Below, piece after piece: positions 20,083 to 61,765 of a DNA stretch of 64,000 nucleotides. A program made the position numbers and the translations under genes. Where the stretch lies: the IMG/VR virus record IMGVR_UViG_2744054962_000001. One strand, 5' to 3'. The stretch is from a virus. Lineage: Duplodnaviria > Heunggongvirae > Uroviricota > Caudoviricetes. Each line of letters begins with the position of its first letter. The stretch's first letter is position 1. Below the pieces are notes generated by a model. That model was not told the origin of the DNA and searched no databases. It was given only the letters and a program-made list of their open reading frames with translations.

Positions 20083-20125
20083 CTAATACTAGAAAACAAT
20101 TTGTTTAAAAAACAAAGGAAAGCAC

Positions 20126-21466
20126 ATGACCGAACTTTGCCATACAGGACGCGGGCTGTCCGAAGAGTTTGATGAAGATTTCCAGAACAGACTGACGGCA
20201 TATTTTTGTCGTGATCACGAGTTTCTTACTCGTGCGGGAGATCTGGTTGTGCCTAGCCAATTTGCCAATGCGGCCAATGCCATATTGGTTAATATGGTTT
20301 CGGGCTATTACCGTATGTACAAGAGCGCGCCCTCTTCATCTGCAATTCTGGATATGCTTAAGCGTGCGAAACGCGATAAGACTATCCGTGAGGAACTATT
20401 CGCCGATGTTGTTGCTGCGTTTAAGCGCATCCTTGCAGAAAAATTGTCCGATACCTCGTACATGGTTGACCAGGTATCAACCTTCGCAAAAAGCGTAGCG
20501 TTTGATGATGCTCTGATTAAGGCTGCTGAACTGAAAGAGAAAGGCGACTTTCAGGGGGCGATGGCAATCATGGCCAAGGTTCAGCAGATTGGATCGAACG
20601 AAGCGACCGGAATCTATGACTACTACACCTCCGCAAGTGAGCGATTGAAAGCGCGTGAATATGAGGCTTCAGAGGAGTATGTACCAAACAGTATTACAAC
20701 TGGACTCCCTCTTCTCGATAGGTTGCTGTACCAAAAAGGCTGGGCAAAGCGCGAAATGGTGCTCTTCATGGGGTTCGCTAAATCCGGTAAATCGACCGCA
20801 ATGGGTGAGTTTTCCATAAACGCAACGCTTGCTGGCTACAATGTTCTGTATCTCTCGCTGGAGGTTCACACCACCATTTTATCCGACCGTTTTGATGCAA
20901 GATTGTCGGAGACGGAAATGTCCAAGCTGGTGGAACGGCGCGATGAGGTTCATCGTAAGTTGGCAGAGTTGGGAGCCACGAAGGGGATTGGTAGTTTGTG
21001 GGTTGTTGAGCGTCCGTCAGGAAGTATGTCACCGGCAGACCTGGATCGTATGCTTAACAGCATGAAAGCCAATGGCATGGTGCCTGACATGGTTGTTGTC
21101 GACTACGCAGATTTGATGCGTGCCAGTTATGACCTTCGTGATGATCGCGCCAACATTCGTAGTATCTACACCGATTTACGTGCTCTTTATGACAAGCATA
21201 ACGTTGCTGGTATCACGGCGTCGCAAACAAACCGTGAAGGTGGCGCGTCAGAAGTTGCCACAATGATGCACGCTGCCGACAACATCGAAAAAGTACGTAT
21301 TGCTGACCTGGTAATAACGATCAACAAAACCGAAGAAGAAGAAGCGAAAGGAGAGGCTCGTCTCTACTTTGCTGGTTCGCGTAACCAGCAGGGAGGGATC
21401 AGCATTCGCGTTAAACAAAACCTCGAACAAATGCGCTTCATTGAGCGAATCTTAGACGTTACCTAA
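20126..21466 (+). CDS. DnaB-like replicative helicase
   Basis: RecA-fold C-terminal domain with Walker A GFAKSGKSTAM and DnaB-like following motifs (VLYLSLEV, VVVDYADLM, ASQTNREG). Confidence 0.75.
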   Translation: MTELCHTGRGLSEEFDEDFQNRLTAYFCRDHEFLTRAGDLVVPSQFANAANAILVNMVSGYYRMYKSAPSSSAILDMLKRAKRDKTIREELFADVVAAFKRILAEKLSDTSYMVDQVSTFAKSVAFDDALIKAAELKEKGDFQGAMAIMAKVQQIGSNEATGIYDYYTSASERLKAREYEASEEYVPNSITTGLPLLDRLLYQKGWAKREMVLFMGFAKSGKSTAMGEFSINATLAGYNVLYLSLEVHTTILSDRFDARLSETEMSKLVERRDEVHRKLAELGATKGIGSLWVVERPSGSMSPADLDRMLNSMKANGMVPDMVVVDYADLMRASYDLRDDRANIRSIYTDLRALYDKHNVAGITASQTNREGGASEVATMMHAADNIEKVRIADLVITINKTEEEEAKGEARLYFAGSRNQQGGISIRVKQNLEQMRFIERILDVT

Positions 21467-21547
21467 AAAATAAGCGTGGAGAACACCTCCACGCTTGATT
21501 CATTGGTGAAACAACTTTTCTTTTGCCAAACCACAAAAGAAAAACAC

Positions 21548-22729
21548 ATGAGCCTTTATGTTATATCAACATTTAGGTTGGTCACAATATTGCCTGTTAA
21601 AAGTGGAATTATCGTGAGCGAGCTGAAAGAGCTAATTACCGAATTAGATTTTGAACAATGGTTGGATACTGAAGGTATCGTTTATCGACGTGGAGGCGTG
21701 AGTACTCGCGGTCGTGAAGTGAATATCAAGGAGTGTCCGGTATGCGGCAGCTCCAACTGGAAGGTATATTTCAATCTGACCAGTGGCGTCGGTAAATGCT
21801 TCGCTGGTGATCATCCCGAAGAGATTCAGTTCAATAAGCTGGTCTTCCTCAAGCACTACAGCGGTAAATCACGACGACAGTTCGAGGAATATGTGCAGAA
21901 CGCTCTTCTTTCCCAGGGGTGGGCACCAAAGAAAGAAGAGATAGTGCTTGCAAGCACAGTCGAGTTAGAGGGACCAGTTGCACTCCCTCGTCATTACGAT
22001 CTTCCTATAGATGGCCATCTTCCAGACTATCTGGTTGAACGAAATATATCGCCTGAAATGGCAAAGTATTTTGACCTACGATACTGCGTCGAAGGCAAGC
22101 ACGCTTATGTAGATCCGTATACAGATCAGGTTAAAGGACAGATTTTCGATATGCGAATACTGATACCGGTTTACGATCTGGATGGGGTAATGAAGACATT
22201 TCAAGGACGAGACATTACCGGTACAGCAGAACGCCGCTACCTCTTCCCTATGCAGCTGCCGGCGTCGGGTAAGTTTCTCTACAACGGCCACAACGCAGTC
22301 GGGAAACAAACAGTCGTTGTGTGTGAAGGGGCATTTGACGTAATGGGCGTGAAGCGAGCCATCTTCGACGAAAAGACGCTGAGGGATTATGTAGAGCCAA
22401 TTGGCACGTTCGGGATGCACTTGTCCGGAAATATGAATGAGGACGCTGAAGATCAGTTGGGCGCGTTCCTGACGCTCAAGGCGCGTGGATTACGCAACGT
22501 CATCATGATGTGGGATAGCGAGAAGCAAGCGATCCGCAACACCATGTCGGCGGCCAAACGCCTCACCAGCATCGGACTAAATGTCAAAGTGGCCTGTCTG
22601 GGCGAAGAAGGTCTCGACCCCGGCGACGCGACGCCAGAGCAGATCCTCAAAGCCTATTATCGTGCCAAGCCTTACTCCAAACAGCTGGAGTTAAAATGCA
22701 AAGTGCTCGGTATCAAGTCACTCGTGTAG
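21548..22729 (+). CDS. DNA primase (zinc-finger plus TOPRIM)
   Basis: CPVCGSSNW...CFAGDH zinc-binding motif, TOPRIM-like VVVCEGAFDVMG; start chosen at Met preceded by the conserved AAAGAAAAACACATG motif (track ORF starts 21476). Confidence 0.6.
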   Translation: MSLYVISTFRLVTILPVKSGIIVSELKELITELDFEQWLDTEGIVYRRGGVSTRGREVNIKECPVCGSSNWKVYFNLTSGVGKCFAGDHPEEIQFNKLVFLKHYSGKSRRQFEEYVQNALLSQGWAPKKEEIVLASTVELEGPVALPRHYDLPIDGHLPDYLVERNISPEMAKYFDLRYCVEGKHAYVDPYTDQVKGQIFDMRILIPVYDLDGVMKTFQGRDITGTAERRYLFPMQLPASGKFLYNGHNAVGKQTVVVCEGAFDVMGVKRAIFDEKTLRDYVEPIGTFGMHLSGNMNEDAEDQLGAFLTLKARGLRNVIMMWDSEKQAIRNTMSAAKRLTSIGLNVKVACLGEEGLDPGDATPEQILKAYYRAKPYSKQLELKCKVLGIKSLV

Positions 22730-22730
22730 T

Positions 22731-23828
22731 TTAAGTTGTGGGAGACAGACGGTTCAGGACAAACGCTGCGATATTATTTAGTGCTATATTTAGCAAACTT
22801 GCATCATATGTTTGGTCGTTATCCTTAGGTTTAAAATTGCTGATACTGACTGTCTCACTGTGCTCATTTTCATAGAAACGTTTACTGCTTGAATCTAGGC
22901 GTTTGAGGACGTAAATTTGCCCAAATTCAATCCACTCACCTTCACCATTGAGTCCGCTCCCTGTTTTGACTGAGATGAAGTACTTTGCCAGCTTGGTTGT
23001 AATGCAGTCTTCATTTTTTTCTATGCAAACCTTAATGCCGGCGGCTTTCAAACTACGATAAATGCTGTTTGGATATGCCCCACTATAGATTTCGCTGCTT
23101 TCAATGATAATGACGTCGTATTCTTCCTTTGGCTCAATAGATAAAGCTTCAGGCTCCAAATCATCCTTGTGAAAAATAAATCCTAAAAGACGCTCAAGTT
23201 CATCTGTTAATTTGAACATGGGGTTCGCTTGGATCTCGCCAGCCCTGTCTTCGTAGACGAGCCCCGAGGTTATGAGCTTATTTAGCGATCTCAGAGCCAT
23301 TCCACTTTTTTGTGATGTGAGGCTAACTTGGGCTAATACAGTTGATTTATAGCCTTTTATTGGCGAGCTTGTTGTGATGTAAAGTTTGCGCGCATATTCA
23401 ATATCAAAGCAGGTTAACCCACTCAGTATGTGGATAAAAAATAGTTTTTCATCGTCGTTAAGGCTGCTGCGGGCTAGGCTTACCGTCAAGCGAATGTAGT
23501 ATTCTGTTTTCTTGTCTTCATCATCAAGCACGAGCTTTTTGACTAACGCCGAAAAGTGTTCTCTTGAGATATCGACCTCATCGTCGCAAATTTCACCAAT
23601 GCCCATAATGTAACGGTTGAATCGATCACGACAAGTCGTCGCATTTATCTCTGAGAACAACGTGAACATTTTTTCCGCTGCCTCAATATGAGGTCCAACA
23701 AGCGGTATAGATTTGGCAAACGCCAAACCAGTTTCTTTCAATACCTTCCTGTGTTGCATCACGTTTTTGGACAACGTTGTCATAGACCTAAGCCTTGTGT
23801 GTTTAACGTATGAGTTAAGTGAAATCAT
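22731..23828 (-). CDS. hypothetical protein, reverse-strand AT-rich orphan
   Basis: 365 aa ORF convergent with primase gene; no recognisable catalytic motif by eye. Confidence 0.45.
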   Translation of the reverse strand: MISLNSYVKHTRLRSMTTLSKNVMQHRKVLKETGLAFAKSIPLVGPHIEAAEKMFTLFSEINATTCRDRFNRYIMGIGEICDDEVDISREHFSALVKKLVLDDEDKKTEYYIRLTVSLARSSLNDDEKLFFIHILSGLTCFDIEYARKLYITTSSPIKGYKSTVLAQVSLTSQKSGMALRSLNKLITSGLVYEDRAGEIQANPMFKLTDELERLLGFIFHKDDLEPEALSIEPKEEYDVIIIESSEIYSGAYPNSIYRSLKAAGIKVCIEKNEDCITTKLAKYFISVKTGSGLNGEGEWIEFGQIYVLKRLDSSSKRFYENEHSETVSISNFKPKDNDQTYDASLLNIALNNIAAFVLNRLSPTT

Positions 23829-24764: not shown

Positions 24765-25307
24765 TTGATAAACCATTTAGCCCCCTGGTGGGGCTTTTTT
24801 AAACTGCGCTCAATAAGTAAGTACACGACTACGGTTAGAAGCATGTCCACAAAAACAGATTTGTCGAAAATCCCGTCTATCTCCGGAAACAACGGTTATT
24901 CGCTGCGCTGTCAGGAAGTGAAGATCAACGGCCATGAGGCCCATTGCAGCTATACAGTCTGCCAGCACACCATCCTCGCCTACAAAGAGAAGCGTCTCCC
25001 AGCGACATCGTTCCAGTCCTGCGCTGCGGCCATTGCTGCTGGAAAATGCCAGGCGCTGAAGATGATGGTCGAAGAGATCCGCAAAGGCGAACAGCTCTAC
25101 TTCATCGATATGGCTACGCTTATCAAAGAAGTGGAAGAGCAAAACGACCACGCCAGAACGCTTACCCGGAAGCGCAACACCATGACGATTCAACGCACGA
25201 AGAAAACAGAACCAGCCAAACCCGAAACCACGTCCACCGATTCACTGGCGCCTGTCACTGACGTGTACGCGGCACTCATTGAAGAAGCAACCAAAGAAAA
25301 CACATGA
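24765..25307 (+). CDS. hypothetical protein (Cys/His-rich)
   Basis: 180 aa; overlaps the upstream terminator so the true start is probably the internal Met (MSTKTDL). Confidence 0.3.
   Translation: MINHLAPWWGFFKLRSISKYTTTVRSMSTKTDLSKIPSISGNNGYSLRCQEVKINGHEAHCSYTVCQHTILAYKEKRLPATSFQSCAAAIAAGKCQALKMMVEEIRKGEQLYFIDMATLIKEVEEQNDHARTLTRKRNTMTIQRTKKTEPAKPETTSTDSLAPVTDVYAALIEEATKENT
24779..24800 (+). terminator. rho-independent terminator
   Basis: AGCCCC-ctggt-GGGGCT followed by TTTTTT. Confidence 0.65.
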
Positions 25308-25341
25308 AAACTCCCGAGCGACCGATGGAGGTTAAACACTA

Positions 25342-26664
25342 ATGGAAAAACTGATCGCCCTAAAGCACAAGCTGGATGCCATAAAAACGATGGGAACCAA
25401 CGCCAAAAAAGAGGCGCTGGCCAACCTTGATAAATTTGAGCAGAGCATGGTCTCGCTAATGCTCAACCCATTCATTCGATTCGGTGTGAAGAAGTACAAA
25501 GTGGTCGAGCCACTCGATACTTCCGTACCCATCGACCAGAAGGTAGTCGAGCTGCTGGAGAAGCTGGCGGCGCGCGAACTGACCGGGAACGCGGCCATTA
25601 CTGCTGTTGAGTCTATCGTGGCGTCAATGTGCGCCGATGGGCAGGACGTGTTCCGTCGTTTCCTCTTAAAAGACCCAAAAGCGGGTGTTGGGATTAGCCT
25701 ATGCAACAAGGTTTTTGAAAATCCCATTCCGAAATTCGAGGTGCAGCTGGCGTCACCGTATAAAGAAAAAGGCGACAAATACCCCTTCAAGCCAAACCCT
25801 AAAGCAAAATGGCCTATGATTGGCAGCCTTAAGCTCGATGGTTTGCGAGTAATTTGCGAGGTTATTGTTGACGAAGAAGAGGTTAACTTCCTTTCTCGTA
25901 CTGGTAATCCAATCACGTCTCTCGATCACCTAAAGCCAGCCATGCTCGAATTAGGCAAACTTTCAGGCCACAAACACATCTTCTTCGATGGTGAAGGAAC
26001 TGCCGGTTCATTTAACCAGTCCGTATCTGCATTGCGCAAAAAGAACGTGCAGGCAATTGGCGCTATTTATCATGTTTTCGACTTCTTCCTACCGGAATGG
26101 CGGGCACAGGCTAAATCCAAAGAGTATGCAAAGACAGGTATGAAGCTGAAAGAGCGCCTGGCTATTCTCGTGGCGTTGTTCAAAAACGATCGCAGTGAAG
26201 GCTACGCACAAGACATTCACCTGCATCCGTTCTATATCATCCATAGCCACGAAGACTTCATCGAACGCTTCATGAAACGCCTGGACGATAACGAAGAAGG
26301 GGAGATGGGCAAAGATCCGAACTCTGTTTACGAGTTTAAACGTACCCGCAGCTGGTGGAAGTTAAAAGACGAAGATTCAGAAGATGGTGAAATTATCGAT
26401 TTTGAGCCGGGCGATCCGGACTCTGGTTTTGCCAACACGCTTGGAAAAATTGTTATTCGTCTTGAAAACGGCGTCATCGTTCGTGCGAGCGGTATTAAGC
26501 ATAAATATCTGGACGAGATCTGGAACAACAAAGAGAAGTACCGTGGTCGTATTGTTGAGGTTCATTGTCACGAGAAAACACTGGATGGCAGCTTACGCCA
26601 CCCCCGACTGAAATGGCCGCGTTGCTTACGCGATACAGAAGATCGAATCGGAGATAAAGAATGA
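25342..26664 (+). CDS. ATP-dependent DNA ligase
   Basis: adenylation motif I KLDGLR (GSLKLDGLRV), size 440 aa. Confidence 0.7.
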   Translation: MEKLIALKHKLDAIKTMGTNAKKEALANLDKFEQSMVSLMLNPFIRFGVKKYKVVEPLDTSVPIDQKVVELLEKLAARELTGNAAITAVESIVASMCADGQDVFRRFLLKDPKAGVGISLCNKVFENPIPKFEVQLASPYKEKGDKYPFKPNPKAKWPMIGSLKLDGLRVICEVIVDEEEVNFLSRTGNPITSLDHLKPAMLELGKLSGHKHIFFDGEGTAGSFNQSVSALRKKNVQAIGAIYHVFDFFLPEWRAQAKSKEYAKTGMKLKERLAILVALFKNDRSEGYAQDIHLHPFYIIHSHEDFIERFMKRLDDNEEGEMGKDPNSVYEFKRTRSWWKLKDEDSEDGEIIDFEPGDPDSGFANTLGKIVIRLENGVIVRASGIKHKYLDEIWNNKEKYRGRIVEVHCHEKTLDGSLRHPRLKWPRCLRDTEDRIGDKE

Positions 26665-28253: not shown

Positions 28254-28328
28254 GATGGTGTAGCTCAGCGGTAGAGCAGTTGGCTGTTAACCAACTGGTC
28301 GGTGGTTCGAATCCACCCACCATCGCCA
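28254..28328 (+). tRNA. tRNA-Asn (anticodon GTT)
   Basis: cloverleaf read by hand: acceptor GATGGTG/CACCATC, D-arm GCTC-AGCGGTA-GAGC, anticodon loop CTGTTAA, T-arm GGTGG-TTCGAAT-CCACC, encoded CCA. Confidence 0.8.
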
Positions 28329-28330
28329 AT

Positions 28331-28406
28331 GCCGGTTTAGCTCAGTTGGTAGAGCACCTGCCTTGTAAGCAGGATGTCAGCGGTTCGAATCCGTTAACCG
28401 GCACCA
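28331..28406 (+). tRNA. tRNA-Thr (anticodon TGT)
   Basis: acceptor GCCGGTT/AACCGGC, anticodon stem CCTGC/GCAGG with loop CTTGTAA, T-loop TTCGAAT, encoded CCA. Confidence 0.8.
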
Positions 28407-28414
28407 ACACAATT

Positions 28415-28501
28415 GGAGAGTAGAGAGCATGGTGCTCAAGCGGTCTTGAAAGCCGTCCCATTGCGCAAGCGATGATGGTTCGATTCCATTACTCTCCGCC
28501 A
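28415..28501 (+). tRNA. tRNA-Ser (anticodon TGA), type II with long variable arm
   Basis: acceptor GGAGAGT/ACTCTCC, anticodon loop CTTGAAA, variable-arm hairpin CATTGC-gcaa-GCGATG, T-loop TTCGATT, encoded CCA. Confidence 0.7.
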
Positions 28502-32270: not shown

Positions 32271-32368
32271 CCCCTCTTCTCCCTGCGCGAATGGCTTAGT
32301 TCCCTGTTCGCGCAGTGCTACATTAAACACACTAGTAAATAATTTGTTTTCATAACAAAGGATTAGCC

Positions 32369-34477: not shown

Positions 34478-34572
34478 ACAAAACAGCCTTAACGATAAGT
34501 AACCACTTACGATAGATAATGATATATTTATATAAGAAGTTGAACGCTCATTAGAAAACAAAGGAAAAACGC

Positions 34573-35808
34573 ATGACTACTACTGCACTGCAAAATGAAA
34601 AAAATCCTTCTGATTACCTTGTTTGCAAATGGTGCGGAAAATCATTTCACTATTTTAAGTCCCATGTAGCCAATGGTAATTGCGAGGGCATTCCTGAGTC
34701 AGTAAAAGATGCCGATCCTGACACCGTACTGAAAATGTACACAACACAGTTTCCAGATGAGCCAACGCTATCGAAAAAGGCACTTGATGCAATTCAAGCT
34801 AAACGTGCCGAGCAAAAAAGCGAAATGACCAAATCATCTGGCGTGACCAGTAGCCCAGGCTACACAGGCACAGTTGAGTACAAGACAGATCTGGTCGCAG
34901 CTCACGAACTGCTAAATGTAACGGTGAAAGAACTCGGAACAAAACGTGGGACGCCGCTCATGGTTAGCGTCAACGTCAATACGCCGTTTCCAGAGTTCGT
35001 TCCAGAAGTGAAGAAGGGCTACGTATATGGCGACTTCGAACTGATCAAAGACATTTTCATGATGCTTGAACTTGGCATACCTGGCTATTTGTGGGGTCAT
35101 GCAGGAACAGGCAAATCTTCATTGCCTACACAACTATGTGCTTTGCTCAATCGTCCGTTAATCCGTGCCCAACATACAGCATCAATGGAAGAGGCTCATG
35201 TTACGGGACAAATTCTGGCGCGTGATGGCTCTACGTATTTCGAGCCTGGCTTGCTTGCGCTCGCAATGAAGCATGGCTGGGTTTACCTCGCGGATGAATA
35301 CGACTTTGCGTTTCCACAAATTCTTGGCGTGTATCAGCCAGTGCTGGAAGGTGAAGCGTTAGTCATCAAAGAGGCAACTCCAGAATGGCGTCGCATTACT
35401 CCGCATGAACGGTTTGCTTTCATTGGCACTGGCAACACGAACGGATCTGGTGATGAAACCGGCTTGTACCAGGGTACAAACATCCAGAACGCCGCGAACT
35501 TTTCGCGTTTTGGCATCGTTTCGAATGTGAAATACATGAGCAAAGAGGCAGAGATCAACATGTTGATAAATGCCGGTATCGTGGATGAATACGCAGAAAA
35601 GATGGTTAAGTTTGCCGGTATCGTTCGCGATGGATACGAAGAACACCTTATCAGTCAGCCAATTGGCCCTCGTGAACTTTTGTTGTCGGCCAAGATTGGA
35701 ATGATGCGAGGCGACTTTGTGACAGGTATTGAGCGTTCTTTCATTAACAAACTCCCTTCAGCTTCTGCACAAGCGGCTCGTGAAGTTGTTCAAAAAATAT
35801 TTGGTTGA
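34573..35808 (+). CDS. CobS/MoxR-like AAA+ ATPase
   Basis: Walker A GHAGTGKSS, Walker B VYLADEYD; N-terminal Cys/His cluster. Confidence 0.65.
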   Translation: MTTTALQNEKNPSDYLVCKWCGKSFHYFKSHVANGNCEGIPESVKDADPDTVLKMYTTQFPDEPTLSKKALDAIQAKRAEQKSEMTKSSGVTSSPGYTGTVEYKTDLVAAHELLNVTVKELGTKRGTPLMVSVNVNTPFPEFVPEVKKGYVYGDFELIKDIFMMLELGIPGYLWGHAGTGKSSLPTQLCALLNRPLIRAQHTASMEEAHVTGQILARDGSTYFEPGLLALAMKHGWVYLADEYDFAFPQILGVYQPVLEGEALVIKEATPEWRRITPHERFAFIGTGNTNGSGDETGLYQGTNIQNAANFSRFGIVSNVKYMSKEAEINMLINAGIVDEYAEKMVKFAGIVRDGYEEHLISQPIGPRELLLSAKIGMMRGDFVTGIERSFINKLPSASAQAAREVVQKIFG

Positions 35809-35988
35809 TCGTGCGTAAAGGATGTTTCGGCTCTCTTATCGCTGCTTCTGAAACTGGTAAGGCTTGTCTGGTATGTCCAGACAAGCCCGATTGTCACCAA
35901 TCAGCAAAAGAAGTTGCGATTTCGATGTATGGGAAGTTCGTAGGCTTCCCCAATGACAAAATCAAAAAAACCATAAAGGTAAAAACAC

Positions 35989-39525: not shown

Positions 39526-39798
39526 AAAGAATTATGGCGCTTGTTGAGGAAGTCACTCCTCTTACGCACTTTGTTTTGCCATGCCGGCAGTTAGCTTCTG
39601 CCTTTGACTATTCATGCGGCAACCCCGCATTTCGCCACAATGGGCAATTCACTTTTATGGAATAAACTGGCCGTTGTGTCGATTTAATTAGCATGGCCTT
39701 ACCATGCTAATTTATTCAACTTGTACAATCCTACAAATCTATCCACTCAGGCTTACACCGTCTTCGTTATTGTAGAAATGAGGATCATCAGCGTTGAA

Positions 39799-41878: not shown

Positions 41879-41995
41879 TTTTTGATAGATAATAAGTAAG
41901 TACTGATCTATCATTTAACAGCTCGAAAGAGCCACGAATGAACGAAAGCCCAACGCGCATAGCGCCATCGGCCAAATCACAACAAGGAGAAACAC

Positions 41996-43024
41996 ATGTC
42001 TAAGACATTACTTGATTTGCTTAACAAAACTCGTGAAGACATTGCCGCCAAACGTGGTAACAACGTTGATCTGACTCGCTTAAAAGACGGCGTCAACTAT
42101 ATCCGCATCTTCCCGAATAAAGACGACCCAAACGGTAAGTTCTTCCAGACTTTCGGTATGCACTACGTTAAGTATCAGAACGAGGAAGGTAAAGAAGCAA
42201 CCAACGCTTATATTTGTGAGCAACATACTCACGGTCGCGCTTGTCAGCTATGCGAAATGGTGATGGAAGGTCGCGCTCGTCACAAGGGTAACAAAGCAAT
42301 GGAAGAACGCATCGGTCAAATGCGTGCCACTCCTCGCTACCTGGTCAACGGCATTCTTTCTGCTCGTGAGGATTTCGCAGATGCTGAGAAATGCCAGTTA
42401 ATCGAGCTGCCGTCTACTGTATTCGATGATATCTGCAAAGCAATCACCGAAGACATCGCTGATGATATCGGCAATCCACTGAGCAAAGAGGAAGGCTACG
42501 CATTCCTGATTAAACGTACTGGCTCTGGTCGCGATACCAAATATGACGTCTCGCCTAAGCGTAAAGTCTACAAAGGCGATATCGAAGATAAATTCTGGAA
42601 CACCCAGCATGATCTGATCGCATACGCAAATCAGGCTGATGAAACTCGTCTTCTGTCGACAGTTCGCACTATGGGTCGTCTGATTGGCATCGCTGCACCA
42701 ACTGCCGCAGCATCTGCACCAGCAATTTCCTCAACCGCGAAAACATCGGCTGCGGCACTACCTGGATTTGGCTCTGTCACTGGTCATACAGAAGGAGCGA
42801 CGGCTGTAGCAACCGCGCACACACCGGCTTCTGAACCAACCAGTCTGGTTGATGAAGAAATCCTCCGTGCCGTTGAAACTGAATTTAAACCAGAGGCAAG
42901 TTCCGCTGCCGTTGCCGTATCAGTCAAAGAGTCTGAAGCAGTCGCAGCGACATCTGTAGCAACCGCATCTGCGACGGAAGATGAAGGTCTGGATGACCTA
43001 CTGAGAGAGCTGGACTCTCTGTAA
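41996..43024 (+). CDS. ssDNA-binding protein (T4 gp32-like)
   Basis: NYIRIFPNKDDPNGKFFQTFGMHYV and CEQHTHGRACQLC resemble gp32 core and zinc-site pattern; acidic Ala/Ser-rich C-terminal tail. Confidence 0.5.
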   Translation: MSKTLLDLLNKTREDIAAKRGNNVDLTRLKDGVNYIRIFPNKDDPNGKFFQTFGMHYVKYQNEEGKEATNAYICEQHTHGRACQLCEMVMEGRARHKGNKAMEERIGQMRATPRYLVNGILSAREDFADAEKCQLIELPSTVFDDICKAITEDIADDIGNPLSKEEGYAFLIKRTGSGRDTKYDVSPKRKVYKGDIEDKFWNTQHDLIAYANQADETRLLSTVRTMGRLIGIAAPTAAASAPAISSTAKTSAAALPGFGSVTGHTEGATAVATAHTPASEPTSLVDEEILRAVETEFKPEASSAAVAVSVKESEAVAATSVATASATEDEGLDDLLRELDSL

Positions 43025-44297: not shown

Positions 44298-46637
44298 ATG
44301 GCAAAAGGAAAATCCGCACTGGCACTTGCTCTGAAAAAGAAAATCGGTAGCAACGACGAAATTCAGAAAGTAACTCATTGGATTGATACAGGCTTTCCAC
44401 CGTTAAACAAAGCTATTTCTGGTCGTTACGATGGCGGCTTCCCATGTGGTCGTATCGTCGAAGTATTCGGTCCTCCAAGCGCGGGGAAATGTGTTACCGC
44501 AGACACCATGCTGCTGACGGAGCGTGGAATGGTAACAGTGAAAGAGTTGTTTGAGATTGAAGGGTACAAAGCGACATGCACTACTCGCGATGTAGAGCAT
44601 AACGTTGGACTCATCAATGAAAATGGCGTGATAGAGAAGACCTCACACCTGACATGGAACAACCGTCGCAAATTCAAGCGTATTAAGCTGGCATCAGGCG
44701 GTTATATCGAGGCTACGTTCCGTCACCCAATCCGTGTGGTTGACGACTTAGGTAATGTCGTCTGGCGACATGCTGAAAAAATCAGTGTAGGCGACACGAT
44801 TCCTTCAATGGTTGGCACACATCAATTCGGCGATCAGCACCTGGATGCCAATATCGCAAAACTGATGGGCTATTTAATTGCTGACGGATACGTGGCCTCT
44901 GAAAATTCAGTGAATTTTTCTAACACAGATCCTTTCATCAAGGATGAGTACTACCGCCTCATTTCGCTGGTATCAGACAAGATGCCAGTTACGAGAAAAC
45001 ATAACGGCTCGGAAGACCATGTGCTGTTTAGCAAAGAGGTGCGTTCGCTGCTTTTTAAAGAATATGGTCTGGAGTATGAGAAAGCTGCTGGCAAGCAGGT
45101 TCCGTTGAGTGTGCGTCGCGCCAATAGCGAGGCTCAAATTGCATTCCTTCGCGGCTACTTTGAGCTGGAATGCCACGTCAATGATGGTCGCTGCATTGAG
45201 GTTGTGAGCGCGAGTGGGCTGCTGCTACAGCAAATTCGCCTCATGCTCCTGAATCTGGGGATTACGTCAACTATCTCTGAAAAACACGTCGCGGGTTATG
45301 AAAATACATATTACCGGCTGTCATTCAGTGGCTCTAATTACGACCTTTTTCTGTCAACGATTGGTTTCGAATCTCCGGCACGTTTATCAGTGGCAACCAA
45401 ACGGGACATTGGTTTTGACCGCACTTACTCAGGCTATGTTCCGCACATCAGCGGCTTAGTGAAATCACTCTACGAGTCGCTCACCAAGACCACCCGTGAA
45501 GACTACGCTCTGGTAGACCACGTTATTGGCCGCGGCGATCGTGTCGGAATAGACAAACTGCGAGAAATCTATGTCTCCTTCATTGGCAGAAAGAATCGTT
45601 TTAACGAGCATCTGTTTGCACAACTGGCAGCGGTAATTGGCTCTAACTTGTTCTACGACGAAGTCGTGGCTATTGAGGAAGGTGAAGCACCAACGTTCGA
45701 CGTAGCGATGCCGGAAACACACTCTTTCTGGTCTAACGGGATTATCAGCCACAACACATTCCTTGCAACAGCAGCGATGATCTCCGCTCAAAAACAAGAT
45801 GGTCTGGCGGTATTCCTCGATCATGAAAACAGTTTTGACGTTGGCCTGGCTGTAGCCAATGGCCTGAACGCAGATGAGGATGACGGTCAGTGGGTATACA
45901 AGCAGCCTGATACCTTCGAAGACTCTGTAGAGTTGATCGGCACAATACTTAAATTGGTACGTGATGAAGAGCTTATCCCCGAATCAGCACCTATCTGTAT
46001 CGTGGCTGACTCTCTTGCGTCTATGGTTCCGAACTCCAAAGCCGAGAAGTTCGAAAAGATGGCTGAAGGCACTGCCAAAGACAAAGATCAGCTAAACATG
46101 AACGACAATACGGCACTGGCTCGTGCGACGAGTGCGAACTTCCCTACTCTGGCTTTGTGGGCACGCAAATACAACGCCTGCATCATCTTCTTGAATCAGG
46201 TTCGCACAAAAATCGGTGTAATGTTTGGCGACCCTACTACGTCGCCAGGTGGAGATTCACCGAAGTTCTACGCATCTGTACGTATCCGTCTTGGTGCATC
46301 GGTGATGAAGGATGGTAAAGAGAAGATCGGTCAGGACGTAGGCGCAGAATGCATCAAAAACAAAGTTGCACCACCGTATGGCAAATGCACCTGGAAATTC
46401 TACTTCGATCCTACTCGTGGCCTCGACGTTATCGAGTCGCTCGTCGAGTACATGCTGGAAGAAGGATACCTGCCAAAGAACGCCAGCGGTCGAGTAGAAA
46501 TTGGTGACAAGAAATACACCAAATCACAGATCGTCGAGATGTATCGGGAGAAGCCACTGGCTGAAATCATTGCGGCTTTGCAGGCAATCGACGACCGAAG
46601 AGCAAAAGACAACCCCACCGAGTCAGTAGAAGAGTAA
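44298..46637 (+). CDS. RecA-family recombinase interrupted by an intein
   Basis: exteins join as GPPSAGK|TFLATAAM (P-loop) with RecA-like L2 region GGDSPKFYASVRIRLG; combined exteins about 357 aa. Confidence 0.8.
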   Translation: MAKGKSALALALKKKIGSNDEIQKVTHWIDTGFPPLNKAISGRYDGGFPCGRIVEVFGPPSAGKCVTADTMLLTERGMVTVKELFEIEGYKATCTTRDVEHNVGLINENGVIEKTSHLTWNNRRKFKRIKLASGGYIEATFRHPIRVVDDLGNVVWRHAEKISVGDTIPSMVGTHQFGDQHLDANIAKLMGYLIADGYVASENSVNFSNTDPFIKDEYYRLISLVSDKMPVTRKHNGSEDHVLFSKEVRSLLFKEYGLEYEKAAGKQVPLSVRRANSEAQIAFLRGYFELECHVNDGRCIEVVSASGLLLQQIRLMLLNLGITSTISEKHVAGYENTYYRLSFSGSNYDLFLSTIGFESPARLSVATKRDIGFDRTYSGYVPHISGLVKSLYESLTKTTREDYALVDHVIGRGDRVGIDKLREIYVSFIGRKNRFNEHLFAQLAAVIGSNLFYDEVVAIEEGEAPTFDVAMPETHSFWSNGIISHNTFLATAAMISAQKQDGLAVFLDHENSFDVGLAVANGLNADEDDGQWVYKQPDTFEDSVELIGTILKLVRDEELIPESAPICIVADSLASMVPNSKAEKFEKMAEGTAKDKDQLNMNDNTALARATSANFPTLALWARKYNACIIFLNQVRTKIGVMFGDPTTSPGGDSPKFYASVRIRLGASVMKDGKEKIGQDVGAECIKNKVAPPYGKCTWKFYFDPTRGLDVIESLVEYMLEEGYLPKNASGRVEIGDKKYTKSQIVEMYREKPLAEIIAALQAIDDRRAKDNPTESVEE
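44490..45755 (+). mobile_element. intein with LAGLIDADG-type homing endonuclease domain inside recA-like gene
   Basis: begins with Cys directly after SAGK, ends ...IISHN followed by Thr; internal LAGLIDADG-like motifs (LMGYLIADGYV, FLRGYFELECHV); 422 aa. Confidence 0.75.
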
Positions 46638-46642
46638 ACACA

Positions 46643-46666
46643 AGGCGTCCACAGGACGCCTTTTTT
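46643..46666 (+). terminator. rho-independent terminator (AGGCGTCC hairpin family)
   Basis: AGGCGTCC-aca-GGACGCCT then TTTTTT. Confidence 0.7.
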
Positions 46667-46729
46667 ATCTCTTGAAAATATATAAGTGCTTACTTATTAT
46701 TTTCACATAACAACCACATAGGAAAACAC

Positions 46730-46930
46730 ATGATCAAAATCTATCTATTGGCAGTAGCCACAGGCCTTTCAGTGGCTCTCATCTACGGTTTACTGGTTCC
46801 GTCGCTGATTTCTACCAAGAGTGATTTAGCCGTCATGTTTGGAGTTATCGTTGGTTTTGGTGCTCCTGTAATCGGTCTTATTGCTGGTCGTAAGTTTATC
46901 AACTCATTAATCAAAGCAAAGGGGAAATAA
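46730..46930 (+). CDS. small membrane protein (two TM), possible partner of SPFH protein
   Basis: 66 aa, two hydrophobic helices; immediately precedes band-7 lipoprotein gene. Confidence 0.3.
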   Translation: MIKIYLLAVATGLSVALIYGLLVPSLISTKSDLAVMFGVIVGFGAPVIGLIAGRKFINSLIKAKGK

Positions 46931-47805: not shown

Positions 47806-47855
47806 ATCGCAATTATCTTATTAAGAAAACAATTTGTTTAAAAGGATAAGAAAAC

Positions 47856-48281
47856 ATGACAGCTATTAAGAAACTCTACGATGCCGCAAACGTGGCTCTG
47901 GATGTTATTGATGATGAAGTAGCAAAAGGCTTTCCTGAACCTGATTGGGCGCATCAGCTACGAAACGCTATCGCAGAAATGACCCCACCAGATCCAACCC
48001 CCGACGAGACAGACTGGCAGCGATTCATCCGTATGTACGCTCAGGAAATAGGTCCAACGCCAACGGCAGAGCAGGCAATGCTGCTGAAATACTTCAAAGA
48101 GGCGGGAGAGGATTTACCAATTGATGACTCAGCATATTGGTTCCACTGCGCATGGCGTAAGTATGACGTGATATTCACACAAGGCATGGGAAGCAAAGAT
48201 ATGGTTGTGTGGCATCTACTCCATATAGACACAGCCGTTGACAGAGTTATTGAACAGTTTTTCCCTAAACAAGAAGATTGA
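47856..48281 (+). CDS. hypothetical protein
   Basis: 141 aa, conserved AAAAGGATAAGAAAACATG-type start context. Confidence 0.3.
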   Translation: MTAIKKLYDAANVALDVIDDEVAKGFPEPDWAHQLRNAIAEMTPPDPTPDETDWQRFIRMYAQEIGPTPTAEQAMLLKYFKEAGEDLPIDDSAYWFHCAWRKYDVIFTQGMGSKDMVVWHLLHIDTAVDRVIEQFFPKQED

Positions 48282-48336
48282 TCGCCTATTCATAACTAAC
48301 AAAATAAGTAAACACTAACCACAAAAGGAAAAACAC

Positions 48337-48612
48337 ATGAGAGTTTTAGTTCGAATCGTTACCAGCACTGTCTATGACGTGTTTCCACTTTTTATGATCA
48401 AAGTCGATGGCCTTAACGACGAAGAAACTGACGCGCTGATCCAGCGTACTCTTGTTGAATATACAGGTCATGACGCTGATTCAGTGATGGTTGATGATGA
48501 TGGTGTTTGTTGGCATAACGGCAACTGTTGGTACGTAGAAGAGACTCAACAAATCAGTGATGAAGATGCCGAACATCTTGAGCGTATTTTAAGCATCAGC
48601 ACTTTTGAGTGA
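48337..48612 (+). CDS. hypothetical protein
   Basis: 91 aa, conserved AAAGGAAAAACACATG start context. Confidence 0.3.
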   Translation: MRVLVRIVTSTVYDVFPLFMIKVDGLNDEETDALIQRTLVEYTGHDADSVMVDDDGVCWHNGNCWYVEETQQISDEDAEHLERILSISTFE

Positions 48613-53357: not shown

Positions 53358-53583
53358 CGTCAGTTCTCCTTTTTCGTTTGGTTGTCATCATTAAGTGACT
53401 GCGATTATAGAGTGGCTTGTAACATCTAGAAGTCTTTGCTGTCCATAAAAATAGGTATTCACTTACCTATTAATTTGCCATAATCATGTGTCTGTGAACA
53501 TTCTTAATGGCCGTGTTATCTGGATTGTTCGCCTCTCAAACACACTTAATATCTGTATCAAAATAACCACAAAGGAAAAACAC

Positions 53584-54669
53584 ATGACTTTGCCATACGG
53601 CGTCATTTCTGACTGCCACTACCACAAATGGGATGCGTTCTCCACGACGAACGCTGAGGGGCTTAACTCCAGACTTGAAATACAGTTGGAAGCAACGAAA
53701 GAAGCAGCCATCGCCATGAAGAAGGCCGGTTGTAAGTACATGTTGGTTGCCGGTGATACATTTCACGTCCGAGGAACTGTGTCCCCTTCTGTTTTGCATT
53801 ACGTAACTGAAACGTACAAGTGGATTATCAACGAGCTTGATCTGACAGTAGTAATGCTGGCCGGTAATCACGATCTTGAAACCAACGATTCAGTATATAG
53901 CGCCAACGCAGCAGCATCGCTGAGTTCTATCGGCGTGGTAATCGTATGTGGCAAGCGCCCACACTCAATAAAAATTGGTGATGTGACTGTCCACCTGATT
54001 AGCTGGCGTAACAATCATGCGGAGCTTATCAGCGATCTGAAAGCATTACGTAAGAGCGTAGAAGGTGATAATCATGACGTTGTTATCCATACATCCATTA
54101 ACAAAGCCATTCCAACAATGCCTGACGTCGGTATCGATGCGCAGGAGTTAAAGGATATCGGCTTTCGTCTCGTGCTTAGTGGGCATTACCACAACCACAA
54201 AGAGGTCATTCCTGGAGTTATCAGTGTCGGTGCGCTGACCCATCAAAATTGGGGAGATGTTGGATCTCTGGCTGGTTACATGATCGTAAACCCGGACGGC
54301 TGTTTCAGTCACTACGAAACCAGTGCGCCTAAATTCATTAACCTGGAAGATTATGTTGCCGATGACCAAATTCGCGGCAACTACGTGCGTTTCCGCGCCG
54401 TAATTGAGAACGATGAAGAAGGCATTAAGTACCAGAACATCCTCAAAACAATGGGTGCAAAAGGTGTCGTATGCAACTTCATCCGTAAGTCATCAATGAT
54501 GGAAGGGACAGCAAGCACAACGGAAACCAGCAAAATCGATAGCCTGGGAGAGTCGGTATCTGCTTATTGCAAGATTGTCCACGATACTGACGGCGGATTT
54601 GATCTGAGCAAGTTGGATATTTTGTGTCAGGAAATCCTCACCGAAGCGGAGAGTTCGGAGGCTGTGTGA
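53584..54669 (+). CDS. sbcD: SbcD/Mre11-like metallophosphoesterase nuclease
   Basis: calcineurin-like motifs DCHYH, GDTFH, AGNHD, GHYH; start at internal Met preceded by AAAGGAAAAACACATG (track ORF starts 53488). Confidence 0.7.
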   Translation: MTLPYGVISDCHYHKWDAFSTTNAEGLNSRLEIQLEATKEAAIAMKKAGCKYMLVAGDTFHVRGTVSPSVLHYVTETYKWIINELDLTVVMLAGNHDLETNDSVYSANAAASLSSIGVVIVCGKRPHSIKIGDVTVHLISWRNNHAELISDLKALRKSVEGDNHDVVIHTSINKAIPTMPDVGIDAQELKDIGFRLVLSGHYHNHKEVIPGVISVGALTHQNWGDVGSLAGYMIVNPDGCFSHYETSAPKFINLEDYVADDQIRGNYVRFRAVIENDEEGIKYQNILKTMGAKGVVCNFIRKSSMMEGTASTTETSKIDSLGESVSAYCKIVHDTDGGFDLSKLDILCQEILTEAESSEAV

Positions 54670-58127: not shown

Positions 58128-58200
58128 TTTCATTGATAGGTAAGTGCTTATCTATTAACATGGGCCACTATATTTAGTGGCCCTCTTTATTTGGTGATAC

Positions 58201-60516
58201 ATGATAAGCATCGTAAAACGTAACGGCCAAACAGAGCCGTTATCCGAAGAAAAATACAACCGCGTCGTAATGTATGGCGTAGAAGGCATTCGTGGTGTAA
58301 GCGCATCCGCTGTAGCAATGGGAGCTGCGGCCAGCATTTTTGATGGGATTACCACCAGCCAGTTGCATGAGGCTTTGGTTAAATCTGCCGCTGATTTGAT
58401 CTCACCAGAAGCACCAAATTACTCACAGGTGGCTGCCCGCCTGAACATTTTTAAAATCCGCAAAGATGCCTTCGGTCGTTACGACTATCCGAACTTCTAC
58501 CAACACATTGTCAAGAACGTTAACAAGGGCGTTTATGACAAGGATTTGCTGACACATTATTCGTTTGAAGAGATCGAAGAACTCGGCAATTACATTAAGC
58601 CGAAACGTGACGATCTTTTTGGCTATGCAGCTACGGTGCAGTTGCAAAGCAAATACCTCGTTCAAAACCGTGTTACTGGTGAGATTCATGAGGGGCCGCA
58701 ACATATCTATATGCTGGTAGGCATGTGTCTGTTCCAGAATTGGGAAGACGACTGCGCTGGCAAAACACGTATGGAGATGGTCAAAGGTTTCTATGACGTT
58801 ACAAGTACGTTCAAACTGTCTCTGCCCACACCAATCATGGCCGGCGTCCGTACTCCAACCCGTCAGTTCTCCAGTTGTGTGCTGATTGAGTCTGGCGATA
58901 GTCTGAAAGGGATTAGTGCAGCTTCAGCCGCAATTATCGACTACGTTTCACGTCGTGCTGGAATTGGTATTGGTTTTGGCCGTATCCGTGCGCTGGGCAG
59001 CGAGATCCGCAATGGTGAAGCCACCCATACCGGAGTTATTCCATTCCTGAAGCATTTCCAGACGGCTGTTAAATCTTGTTCGCAAGGTGGTGTTCGTGGT
59101 GGCGCAGCAACAGCGTTTTACCCGATCTGGCATCTTGAAGTTGAAAGTCTGCTGGTGGTGAAAAATAACCGTGGTATTGATGAAAACCGCGTTCGCCATC
59201 TTGATTACGGCGTCATGAGTAACCGTCTAATGTACCGTCGACTCGTCAGAAGCGAGAACATCACTCTGTTCAGCCCGCATGATGTGCCTGATATGTACGA
59301 AGCCTTCTTCACAGACCAGGAGCTGTTTGAAAAGCTGTACCATAAATACGAAGCCGATGATTCAATTCGCAAGAAGTCAGTACCTGCCATTGAGCTGTTC
59401 TCATCTCTGATGCAGGAACGAGCGTCCACGGGCCGAATTTATATTGCGAACGTCGATCATATTAACGAGCATGGCGCTTTCATTCCTGCTCTTGCACCTG
59501 TTCGCCAGTCAAACCTGTGCATGGAGATCACTCTACCCACTCGTCCACTGGCATTTACCGACGACCCGAACGGTGAGATCGCGCTATGCACTTTATCCGC
59601 TTTTAACCTCGGAGCCATCCGTTCACTGGAGTCTCTTAAAGAGGTGGCGTTCTATGCCGTTGCTGCACTGGATTCGTTACTGGATTATCAAGACTATCCG
59701 ATGGAGGCAGCCGAAGTGCCTGCCAAAGCTCGTCGTAGCTTGGGAATTGGTGTAACCAACTTTGCTTATTACCTGGCAAAGAATGGCGTTCGTTATTCTG
59801 ATACCGCTGGCAATAAACTGGTGCATGAAACGTTCGAAGCTATCCAGTATTACCTTCTTGATGCCAGCTGCCGACTTGCTGAAGCAAAAGGTGAGTGTGA
59901 CTGGTTTGAGCAGACCAAGTACGCAATTGGTCAGTTGCCGATCGACCATTACCGTTCTTCATTAGACGAAAGTGGCGAAACCAACTTTGAGTTAAAGATG
60001 CCGTGGGAAGAACTGCGTGAACGTATTGCAAAATACGGCCTTCGCAACTCCACACTGACGGCACAAATGCCATGCGAGACTTCCAGCCAGATCACTAATT
60101 CCACCAACGGCATCGAACCGCCTCGTGGACCGGTGTCGGTGAAATCTTCTAAGGACGGCATCGTTAAGATGGTCGTGCCTGAGTTTGAAAAACTGAAGGA
60201 ACAGTATGAATACCTGTGGGATATGCCGGACAACCGCGGCTATCTGACAAAGGTGGCGATCATCCAGAAGTTCTTTGACCAGGCTATTTCAGCCAATACC
60301 AACTATGACCCTTCTCGCTTTGAAGGCGATAAAGTCCCAATGATGACGCTACTGTCAGATTTGCTTCTCGCCTACAAGATGGGAGTTAAAACGCTTTACT
60401 ACCACAACACCAGAGATGGGGCAGGAAAGCGTGATGACGACGAACCGCAGAATCCACTGACGCAAGCTGTAGCCGTCGAGCCAGAAGATGAGTGCGACGG
60501 AGCCTGCAAAATCTGA
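58201..60516 (+). CDS. nrdA: ribonucleoside-diphosphate reductase alpha subunit (class Ia)
   Basis: 771 aa; N-terminal ATP-cone, conserved active-site region (SNLCMEI) and radical-transfer Tyr pair near C-terminus. Confidence 0.9.
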   Translation: MISIVKRNGQTEPLSEEKYNRVVMYGVEGIRGVSASAVAMGAAASIFDGITTSQLHEALVKSAADLISPEAPNYSQVAARLNIFKIRKDAFGRYDYPNFYQHIVKNVNKGVYDKDLLTHYSFEEIEELGNYIKPKRDDLFGYAATVQLQSKYLVQNRVTGEIHEGPQHIYMLVGMCLFQNWEDDCAGKTRMEMVKGFYDVTSTFKLSLPTPIMAGVRTPTRQFSSCVLIESGDSLKGISAASAAIIDYVSRRAGIGIGFGRIRALGSEIRNGEATHTGVIPFLKHFQTAVKSCSQGGVRGGAATAFYPIWHLEVESLLVVKNNRGIDENRVRHLDYGVMSNRLMYRRLVRSENITLFSPHDVPDMYEAFFTDQELFEKLYHKYEADDSIRKKSVPAIELFSSLMQERASTGRIYIANVDHINEHGAFIPALAPVRQSNLCMEITLPTRPLAFTDDPNGEIALCTLSAFNLGAIRSLESLKEVAFYAVAALDSLLDYQDYPMEAAEVPAKARRSLGIGVTNFAYYLAKNGVRYSDTAGNKLVHETFEAIQYYLLDASCRLAEAKGECDWFEQTKYAIGQLPIDHYRSSLDESGETNFELKMPWEELRERIAKYGLRNSTLTAQMPCETSSQITNSTNGIEPPRGPVSVKSSKDGIVKMVVPEFEKLKEQYEYLWDMPDNRGYLTKVAIIQKFFDQAISANTNYDPSRFEGDKVPMMTLLSDLLLAYKMGVKTLYYHNTRDGAGKRDDDEPQNPLTQAVAVEPEDECDGACKI

Positions 60517-60622
60517 CATATGGTGGGGGATATCCCCACCTTCTCTTTGATTTGTAAGCCTTGTTTAAACACATAAGATAACAACTTGTTTAAACGCACC
60601 AAAAAAGAAAAAGGAAAAACAC

Positions 60623-61765
60623 ATGTCATATTCAACGTTCCGTTTGGGTGCTAATGATGCAACCAAAGAGCCTATGTTCCTCGGACAATCTGTCAACGTG
60701 GCTCGTTACGATCAACAAAAATACCGTGATTTTGAAAAGTTGATTGAACGTCAATTGTCTTTCTTCTGGCGGCCGGAAGAAGTTGATATTTCGAGCGATC
60801 GCATCGACTTCAATACGAAGCTGCGGGACCACGAACGCCACATTTTCCTGAGTAATCTCCGTTATCAAACGTTGCTCGATTCAGTTCAGGGACGTAGCCC
60901 AAACGCAACTCTGCTGCCGCTTATCTCTATTCCTGAACTGGAAACGTGGGTTGAAACGTGGTCTTTCTCTGAGACTATCCATAGCCGCAGCTACACCCAC
61001 ATTATTCGTGGCATGGTGGACGATCCGAGTATTGTTTTTGACGGTATTGTTACGGATGAAGAAATCATCAACCGAGCCATCAGTATCTCTGCTGAATATG
61101 ACAGGCTTTATGGGATGACCTGCGATCGCCAGTCGTTAGGCGAGAAGGAATTTGAGCGTCTGTACGTAAATGAATATGGCTGGGAGCCATATCCTTTGCA
61201 CCGTCAGCTTTTCCGCACGTTAGTGTCCATTAATGCGCTTGAGGCGATCCGTTTCTATGTAAGTTTTGCATGTACGTTTGCCTTTGGCGAACGGAAGTTG
61301 CTTGAGGGTAACACCAAAATTATGCGCTTTATTGCCCGTGATGAAGCTCTGCATTGCGAAGGAACTGAACGCATGATCCGCTTCATGCGTACCGGTCGCG
61401 AAGGTTTATTGTGGAAAGAGATTGCTGCTGATGAAGAAAACGTCATTTACGACACCATGAAATCAGTCGCCGAACAAGAAATGAACTGGGCAGACTATCT
61501 CTTCAAAGACGGTTCGATGATTGGTTTAAACGCGGATATTCTGAAGACCTATGTAAAATACCGAACCAATCTGGCTATGAATCGTCTTGGCCTGAAGGCT
61601 TTATTTCCAGAAGTTACCACTGATCCGCTGGTCTGGATGAACAAGTGGTTGTTAACCGACACACTGCAAATTGCACCACAAGAGGCAGAGCAAAGCACAT
61701 ATCTGGTAGGTCAGATCGATTCTACCGTGGACAAGGCTTCTCTAAGCCAGTTTGCAGACCTGTAA
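60623..61765 (+). CDS. nrdB: ribonucleoside-diphosphate reductase beta subunit
   Basis: 380 aa, di-iron/tyrosyl radical ferritin-like fold motifs ([20 protein letters not shown]). Confidence 0.9.

Follow-up and report, generated by a model that had tools for sequence, protein, structure and literature searches.

Why do about ten genes for replication and nucleotide metabolism in one phage-plasmid open with almost the same bases? The question arises in a 64,000-nucleotide (nt) stretch of viral DNA, IMG/VR record IMGVR_UViG_2744054962_000001 (hereafter, the window), in which these lytic-cycle genes share a near-identical run of 13–16 bases before the start codon. The run is organized as a Shine–Dalgarno (SD) sequence, AAGGA, followed by a U-free spacer of A and C that ends in ACAC and abuts the ATG. 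Our analysis makes it highly probable that this motif is real, under selection, tied to start codons and specific to the family, and that it acts in translation initiation; the leader that it forms may place the genes that carry it under one translational control.

By sequence, the window is an SSU5-like phage-plasmid and close kin (98% identical) of Escherichia phage Cyrano, the SSU5-like phage-plasmid of Escherichia coli LF82. The DNA of the polymerase gene is 98.2% identical to that of Cyrano (OV696614) and 81–94% identical to those of SSU5 and of Klebsiella and E. coli relatives; 57 Cyrano proteins can be placed on the window, mostly at 95–100% identity. The replication proteins are of T4 type, with gp32-, UvsX/Y/W- and gp46/47-like members. 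As genome-wide reference we used the whole Cyrano genome, rebuilt from its annotated record, with 123 gene starts. SSU5-like phage-plasmids are common in clinical Enterobacteriaceae, with about 800 PLSDB plasmids that include the pHCM2 type of Salmonella Typhi and the pMT1 type of Yersinia pestis, and the motif offers a testable handle on the post-transcriptional control of a large T4-like replication module that is silent in the plasmid and on when induced.

A start leader shared by replication genes

With up to three mismatches allowed (≤3), the 16-mer AAAGGAAAAACACATG has seven matches, all on the plus strand, where 1.12 are expected, and none of 100 shuffles reaches seven. The core AAACACATG occurs in eight copies on the plus strand and none on the minus strand (0.92 expected), and every copy stands at an ATG: seven of the eight begin open reading frames (ORFs) of 66–1168 amino acids (aa) that have orthologues, and one opens a conserved mini-ORF of 12 codons. 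Among the Cyrano genes, ACAC fills positions −4 to −1 in 10 of 123, against 0.7–1.6 expected from position-independent frequencies, and the next tetramer is found four times.

The leaders of carrier genes (positions −22 to −1) are 61% A, 19% C, 12% G and 7% T, compared with 26% T at other genes, so the spacer is A/C-rich and U-free rather than AT-rich. The original prediction, made from the letters of the window, had held that the shared stretch is longer than an SD requires; the ACAC excess and the extra purifying selection on the spacer described below bear this out, and the deflating explanation that it had named, SD plus AT-rich spacer statistics, fails at this T content. Carrier start regions are also predicted to be less structured than others (minimum free energy of −5.3 versus −8.5 kcal/mol, p = 0.001) and more often unpaired (probability 0.62 versus 0.47, p = 0.0006), and an Rfam scan found no known cis-regulatory RNA at the motif sites.

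Structural and lysis genes are without the motif (0 of 25), compared with 13 of the 98 others, a modest contrast (Fisher p = 0.044): capsid, tail and portal genes lack the motif, and primase and polymerase carry it. The co-occurrence on replication and metabolism genes suggested originally takes the form of a confinement to non-structural, lytic-cycle genes, and an equal presence on structural genes is contradicted, if modestly, by the same counts. In the host control, 100 kb of E. coli chromosome including ribosomal-protein operons, there is one AAACACATG, and ACAC precedes the start of 0 of 32 ribosomal-protein and elongation-factor genes. Among the matches listed, exact 16-mers in IMG/VR outside SSU5-like contigs are single-copy and scattered.

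Carriers number about 10 in the window and 13–14 per genome, and are frequently the first gene of an operon. On the plus strand, the exact 16-mer stands before the genes for a 91-aa protein with no assigned function (48324–48339; exact AAAGGAAAAACAC-ATG, with CTAACCACA just upstream), an SbcD-like nuclease (53571–53586; ATAACCACA just upstream) and NrdB (60610–60625). Sites with one or two mismatches to it, also on the plus strand, open the primase leader (21535–21550; AAAAGAAAAACAC-ATG, with the ATG at 21548) and the genes for a cobS-like MoxR ATPase (34560–34575; AAAGGAAAAACGC-ATG), DNA polymerase III (PolIII) alpha (35976–35991; AAGGTAAAAACAC-ATG) and a gp32-like single-stranded-DNA-binding protein (SSB; 41983–41998; CAAGGAGAAACAC-ATG). 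The PolIII alpha site falls within the 3′ end of a conserved 69-aa ORF at 35805–36014.

Forms that differ in register or sequence are found, again on the plus strand, before the DnaB-like helicase (20113–20128; AAAGGAAAGCAC-ATG, variant CAAAGGAAAGCAC-ATG), where the 12-mer is identical in the SSU5, Citrobacter and Klebsiella oxytoca relatives, and before a small membrane protein (46717–46732; ATAGGAAAACAC-ATG, CATAGGAAAACAC-ATG). A further plus-strand site, absent from the original list, opens a mini-ORF before the ligase gene (25291–25306; CCAAAGAAAACAC-ATG). The predicted near-identical stretch is therefore present before many start codons, and all the sites listed at first exist. Their coordinates hold, but two of them, given as 47840 and as 40907 on the minus strand, are weak look-alikes that we did not count as members. 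The first, at the start of a DUF7238 gene (47843–47858, plus strand; AGGATAAGAAAAC-ATG), scores 7/13. The second, at the start of a HicB antitoxin gene (40905–40920, minus strand; AAAGGAAAACT-ATG or TCAAAGGAAAACT-ATG), has the SD and A run of the motif without ACAC, and that gene is expressed in lysogens.

Every site contains an SD, AAGGA or a variant (AAGGT, AAGGAG, TAGGA, AAAGA), with a spacer of 6–8 nt, and so has the arrangement taken here to define SD-led initiation: complementarity over at least 4–5 nt with the 3′ end of 16S ribosomal RNA (rRNA), placed 5–9 nt before the start codon. The pairing partner of AAGGA is the very 3′ end of 16S rRNA; a 7-nt spacer gives an aligned spacing of about 5 nt, the optimum in E. 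coli. The last six bases of the spacer are AAACAC, with the variants AAGCAC, AAATAC and AAACGC.

At two carriers the predicted leader consists of little else. The small membrane protein gene at 46730 has, behind a terminator at 46642–46662, a sigma-70-like promoter, TTGAAA-17-TATTAT (46672–46700, plus strand), whose spacer contains the inverted repeat TAAGTGCTTACTTA; the leader predicted from it, of about 23 nt, is in essence the motif. Upstream of SbcD, the promoter-like TTGTTC-16-TAATAT (53525–53552, plus strand) is kept by orthologues as TTGTTC-16-TAnnAT, with TAGAAT, TAAAAT, TAACAT, TAATAT or TATAAT as second hexamer, and the predicted 5′ untranslated region of about 26 nt equals the extended motif ATAACCACAAAGGAAAAACAC. 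The remaining carriers have longer leaders or a site within upstream coding sequence (PolIII, ligase mini-ORF), and carriers are found behind three different promoter or operator types. The exact ATG register, the restriction to one strand and this independence of promoter type argue for a function at the RNA level, in translation initiation.

Two sites open short ORFs instead of the enzyme genes themselves. The primase leader ORF (21548–21613) is conserved and 22–23 codons long. Here it forms one in-frame fusion with primase; in SSU5 and Klebsiella pneumoniae it is a separate short ORF that ends at the true, weak-SD primase start, and the primase start annotated in Cyrano may be too far downstream. 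The ligase mini-ORF (25304–25342, 12 codons) overlaps the stop of the upstream gene with its ATG and the ligase ATG at 25342 with its end. Since both leader ORFs are opened by the motif, the motif also serves as a portable ribosome-loading pad, and the arrangement of the two ORFs suggests translational coupling to primase and ligase.

Divergence and distribution of the leader

Spacer divergence was measured over positions −7 to −1 relative to 4-fold synonymous sites, with orthologue sets of about 80 loci each around SbcD, cobS, NrdB and SSB. The ratio is 0.25 for cobS, 0.28 for SSB, 0.32 for SbcD, 0.52 for NrdB and 0.06 for PolIII, all carriers; for non-carriers it is 0.48 (RecA), 0.50 (exonuclease), 0.80 (MazG), 0.65 (NrdA), about 1 (hyp46) and 0.74 (ThyX). 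Carrier spacers are thus, by sequence divergence, under stronger purifying selection than those of neighbouring genes, and divergence at 0.06–0.5 of the synonymous rate indicates selection and not drift. At NrdB, GG(A/G)AAACAC-ATG is retained in lineages whose upstream flanks cannot be aligned, and at the 46730 gene the window and Cyrano share, without a difference, a 21-nt block that includes the motif, within a patch otherwise about 80% identical.

The motif precedes orthologous and additional genes in SSU5, in K. pneumoniae and Citrobacter relatives and in a K. oxytoca plasmid with a polymerase of only 66% identity. It is missing from an Acinetobacter relative in which the gene order is the same. 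On this sequence evidence, the motif is specific to the enterobacterial branch of the SSU5-like family. Within that branch it has been gained by RecA/UvsX and RuvC in K. oxytoca and by cobT in the K. pneumoniae type, and for the five carriers with the A-run form in both the window and K. oxytoca, the K. oxytoca spacer is in every case shorter by 1 nt.

The original prediction had offered the recombinational spread of a start module as one explanation. The resemblance between sites extends over no more than about 22 nt and the motif does not mark mosaic junctions, which speaks against that idea; the gains on new genes and the homogenization within genomes speak for it, and indicate that some spread or convergent recruitment is real. 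We also considered the motif as a recombination junction of the mosaic and rejected this, because the junctions of the divergent patch at about 46560–46930 lie elsewhere and the motif is merely conserved there.

Readings of the leader and a candidate reader

We propose a mechanism in three steps, held with decreasing confidence. First, the motif would act as an unstructured ribosome-loading site in translation initiation, which we consider very likely. Second, and tentatively, it may also be a shared recognition site through which one trans-acting RNA-binding factor co-regulates the translation of all carriers. This step is suggested because the sequence of the spacer and not its composition alone is conserved, because the motif has been re-acquired on new genes and homogenized within genomes, and because the most expressed genes of the host and the most abundant proteins of the phage do without it. 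Third, the reader could be the conserved FljA-family protein of the element. That identification is doubtful; it is put forward because the FljA family binds messenger RNA (mRNA) and blocks translation, because the protein is modelled with a tandem Hfq/Sm-like fold and because its gene is transcribed in the plasmid-prophage state.

The original prediction had drawn an analogy with T4 RegA. Pfam detected no RegA-family protein among 58 proteins (20 from the window and 38 from Cyrano, clearly annotated others lying outside the scan), and no other RNA-binding domain in these 58 save the FljA-family match. PHROGs, run on 10 window proteins that mostly belong to the Pfam set as well, returned only families of unknown function. 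A wobble-tolerant complement of the motif, sought as an antisense or small-RNA partner across the whole Cyrano genome, has no match apart from the reverse strand at the motif sites themselves. For an operator of the RegA kind, the searches made supply neither a RegA-family protein nor a complementary RNA, but every SSU5-like relative has a different candidate reader. A CsrA/RsmA site was also considered and rejected: such sites present GGA in a hairpin loop, usually two or more times in a leader, and the leaders here have a single GGA each and are predicted to lack structure, with no hairpin. Cleavage by a MazF-type toxin at the ACA beside the AUG, or by HicA, was set aside as speculative.

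The candidate is CYRAN_114 of Cyrano, a full-length match to PF03614, the FljA family (E = 2.5e-79). In the element studied here the gene would lie outside the 64-kb window, and we infer its presence from the 98% identical relative. All 12 SSU5-like phage records have a gene of this family, as have 831 plasmids (341 from Klebsiella, 229 from Escherichia, 92 from Enterobacter, 62 from Yersinia, 60 from Salmonella and none from Acinetobacter). The predicted tandem Hfq/Sm-like fold of the protein is compatible with RNA binding. In transcripts of the LF82 lysogen, CYRAN_114 reaches a log2 value of about 7–8 and motif genes about 3–5; the carriers are at background expression in the lysogen, and so belong to the lytic programme.

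FljA-type proteins are reported to prevent translation of fliC mRNA (PMC2652032, citing Bonifield & Hughes 2003 and Yamamoto & Kutsukake 2006). All SSU5-like elements resemble this flagellar phase-variation system of Salmonella in encoding a full-length PF03614 protein. They differ from it in several ways: the Cyrano annotation contains no flagellin gene, the SSU5-like protein is only 35–40% identical to true FljA and is kept in plasmids of non-flagellate Klebsiella, and the fliC leader is unlike the motif. Klebsiella is classically non-flagellate, and LF82 and S. Typhi CT18 are flagellate despite carrying such elements, which makes host fliC unlikely as the sole target of the FljA-like protein. 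If these pieces belong together, an FljA-family tandem-Sm protein made in the plasmid-prophage state would bind AAACAC-AUG leaders and thereby keep the lytic replication genes in elements of the SSU5, pHCM2 and pMT1 types under a second lock, at the post-transcriptional level, and Salmonella FljA would be a domesticated offshoot of this phage regulator. We regard this regulon as unlikely; if the FljA-family protein is indeed the reader, a regulator so far familiar only from flagellar phase variation would gain an assigned fold and an ancestral function.

Several observations weigh against a shared recognition site read by such a protein. A/C-rich, structure-free leaders are good ribosome-binding sites by themselves, and the lacZ leader, CACACAGGAAACAGCUAUG, looks similar. 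The motif tolerates transitions at −1, −2, −3 and −5, its spacer varies from 6 to 8 nt, and spacing in the SSU5 lineage is heterogeneous; this tolerance is looser than that of many protein operators. The proteins scanned include no RegA homologue, and the E. coli fliC leader, caatataggataacgaatcATG, lacks AAACAC. The K. oxytoca FljA-like protein is 39% identical to that of Cyrano with the AAACAC core unchanged. Finally, the link between FljA-like gene and motif amounts to a single phylogenetic contrast, enterobacterial versus Acinetobacter; the plasmid collection contains no near kin of two more distant NrdB-bearing contigs from which to read their FljA status.

We favour the shared recognition site, with a purely cis-acting explanation close behind. 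In the latter, the motif would be an optimized initiation module with no dedicated factor, which helps early and middle lytic mRNAs to compete for host ribosomes, and the identity between genes would reflect a narrow fitness peak together with common descent. This is quite possible: the SD geometry is optimal and structure is low, the motif serves as a loading pad before leader mini-ORFs that end at the weak-SD primase and ligase starts, the tolerated variants are mostly transitions and the spacer length floats between 6 and 8 nt, and neither a RegA homologue nor an antisense partner appeared in the searches made. However, the host genes under the strongest expression pressure lack the motif (0/32), as do the most abundant proteins of the phage, whereas the low-copy enzymes primase and PolIII alpha have it. 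Other A-rich spacers should also serve equally well, yet AAACAC persists at a synonymous divergence of about 0.5, and the spacer length shifts coordinately from genome to genome despite the same host anti-SD, the 3′ ends of enterobacterial 16S rRNA being identical.

Concerted evolution, or the recombinational spread of a short start cassette, would have the motif kept only for its SD while the extra bases hitch-hike by gene conversion. The identical 16-mer at three unrelated genes, the 5′ extension AACCACA common to four, the lineage-specific gains (cobT; RecA/UvsX and RuvC) and the homogeneous spacer length within a genome all fit such a process. It is nevertheless improbable as the whole explanation: no flanking homology exists beyond the roughly 22 nt of similarity to drive conversion, mosaic boundaries do not coincide with the motif, and orthologous spacers are kept across lineages at 0.06–0.5 of the synonymous rate.

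Still less probable is that the motif works as DNA and merely lies beside gene starts, for instance as an initially transcribed or promoter-proximal element or as the site of a DNA-binding regulator. Several carriers do come first after a promoter, with the motif filling most of a short leader, and the same regions are rich in other dispersed DNA motifs, namely the palindrome AAACAAnTTGTTT and the inverted repeat TAAGTnnnnACTTA. Against this, the motif is asymmetric, confined to one strand and in exact ATG register at every site, it also occurs inside upstream coding sequence (PolIII, ligase mini-ORF), and it is combined with three different promoter or operator types. A compositional artefact of an ordinary SD with an A-rich spacer is refuted: AAGGA does stand at the right distance in 23 of 123 Cyrano genes and is commonly followed by an A-rich spacer, but shuffle controls exclude chance, ACAC is in roughly 10-fold excess, T is depleted to 7% and the motif is conserved across lineages.

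Is there a precedent for a start-associated sequence of this kind? Literature searches returned no description of the motif in SSU5-like elements. The closest precedent is the start-associated sequence (SAS) and extended SAS (ESAS) of Cluster K mycobacteriophages, which share almost every formal property with it and which we regard as an analogue and not a homologue. The SAS is a 13-nt asymmetric motif that contains an SD and is conserved beyond its pairing with 16S rRNA; 11–19 copies per genome lie in one orientation, almost always at ATG starts and in the non-structural half of the genome (2011, PMC3203893). Its function was still unverified in 2025 (PMC12699233). The motif described here is likewise multi-copy, asymmetric, SD-containing, ATG-adjacent, in one orientation and on non-structural genes (with the modest p = 0.044 for the structural contrast), and is retained from one sub-lineage to another, although the gene families that it precedes differ. 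A subset of SAS is preceded by an inverted repeat (ESAS), and a possible counterpart here is AAACAAnTTGTTT, which lies upstream of helicase, cobT, the 47856 gene and NrdB and also of many motif-less genes. In contrast, the SAS consensus, GGGATAGGAGCCC, is unrelated to AAAGGAAAAACAC, as are phage lineage and host phylum; the conserved part abuts the ATG here and lies 3–7 bp away in SAS; and here selection on the spacer is quantified and a candidate RNA-binding reader identified. The motif would also be a tractable E. coli model for mycobacteriophage sequences that have stood unexplained since 2011.

Two other systems bear a more partial likeness. In T4 and RB69, RegA acts where many early and middle mRNAs for replication and nucleotide metabolism share a site that overlaps the initiation region, as the carriers do. 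RegA sites are AU-rich and only loosely alike, whereas the motif is U-free and near-identical between genes, and the proteins scanned here include none of the RegA family. The motif also resembles the targets of the Hfq distal face, (ARN)n, and the A-rich 'CA' targets of Hfq–Crc, in presenting an A-rich single-stranded stretch over the ribosome-binding site, with ARN triplets AGG-AAA-AAC, and the candidate FljA-like reader has a predicted Hfq/Sm-like fold. Unlike those targets, it holds only about three ARN triplets, and its conserved CAC beside the AUG falls outside the ARN rule.

Putative operators and other features of the element

The palindrome AAACAAnTTGTTT is present in the window at 16867–16879, 18410–18422, 20094–20106, 32337–32349, 47827–47839 and 60579–60591. 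In Cyrano it occurs between genes 15 times; a copy usually lies 11–31 nt before a start codon, with a GATAAT-like −10 hexamer about 13 nt upstream of the copy, and the palindrome looks like the operator of one promoter class. The helicase, NrdB, 47856 and cobT starts lie 11–31 nt from a copy, and many genes without the motif are also preceded by one.

The inverted repeat TAAGTnnnnACTTA recurs, in copies of about 14 nt each, at 4077, 10433, 14270, 19315, 23905, 27487, 34496, 41428, 41893, 46683, 48305, 53452 and 62853. Its copies lie in or beside promoter-like sequences of late genes (tail, fibre, holin) and of replication genes, and by analogy with the scattered C1 operators of P1 they are likely to be dispersed operators of the prophage master repressor.

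Some replication genes show features of their own. The NrdA start (58162–58203) directly follows a terminator-like hairpin and reads GGTGATAC-ATG, or GGAGGACAC-ATG in some lineages; GGTGATAC pairs with the AUCACC part of the 16S rRNA 3′ end and not with CCUCC. The RecA/UvsX-like gene (44298–46637) encodes 779 aa here and in Cyrano and about 358 aa in SSU5 and in the K. pneumoniae and Citrobacter relatives, a size difference that may reflect an intein or a fused domain. In some Klebsiella relatives the PolIII alpha gene is interrupted by an HNH endonuclease gene.

A 365-aa ORF on the minus strand (22731–23828) is absent from Cyrano at this place, which offsets the two genomes by about 1.2 kb, and relatives carry different minus-strand genes there, so the interval from primase to the next operon is a variable cargo site. 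The window also contains a CspA-family cold-shock gene on the minus strand (39774–40192; coding sequence 39799–40011) with a full-length cspA thermoregulator 5′ untranslated region (RF01766, 187 bits); the gene is unannotated in Cyrano and gives the element a second protein that binds nucleic acid. The stretch 28254–28498, between the replication operons, contains three tRNA genes, which the Cyrano annotation assigns to Asn, Thr and Ser.

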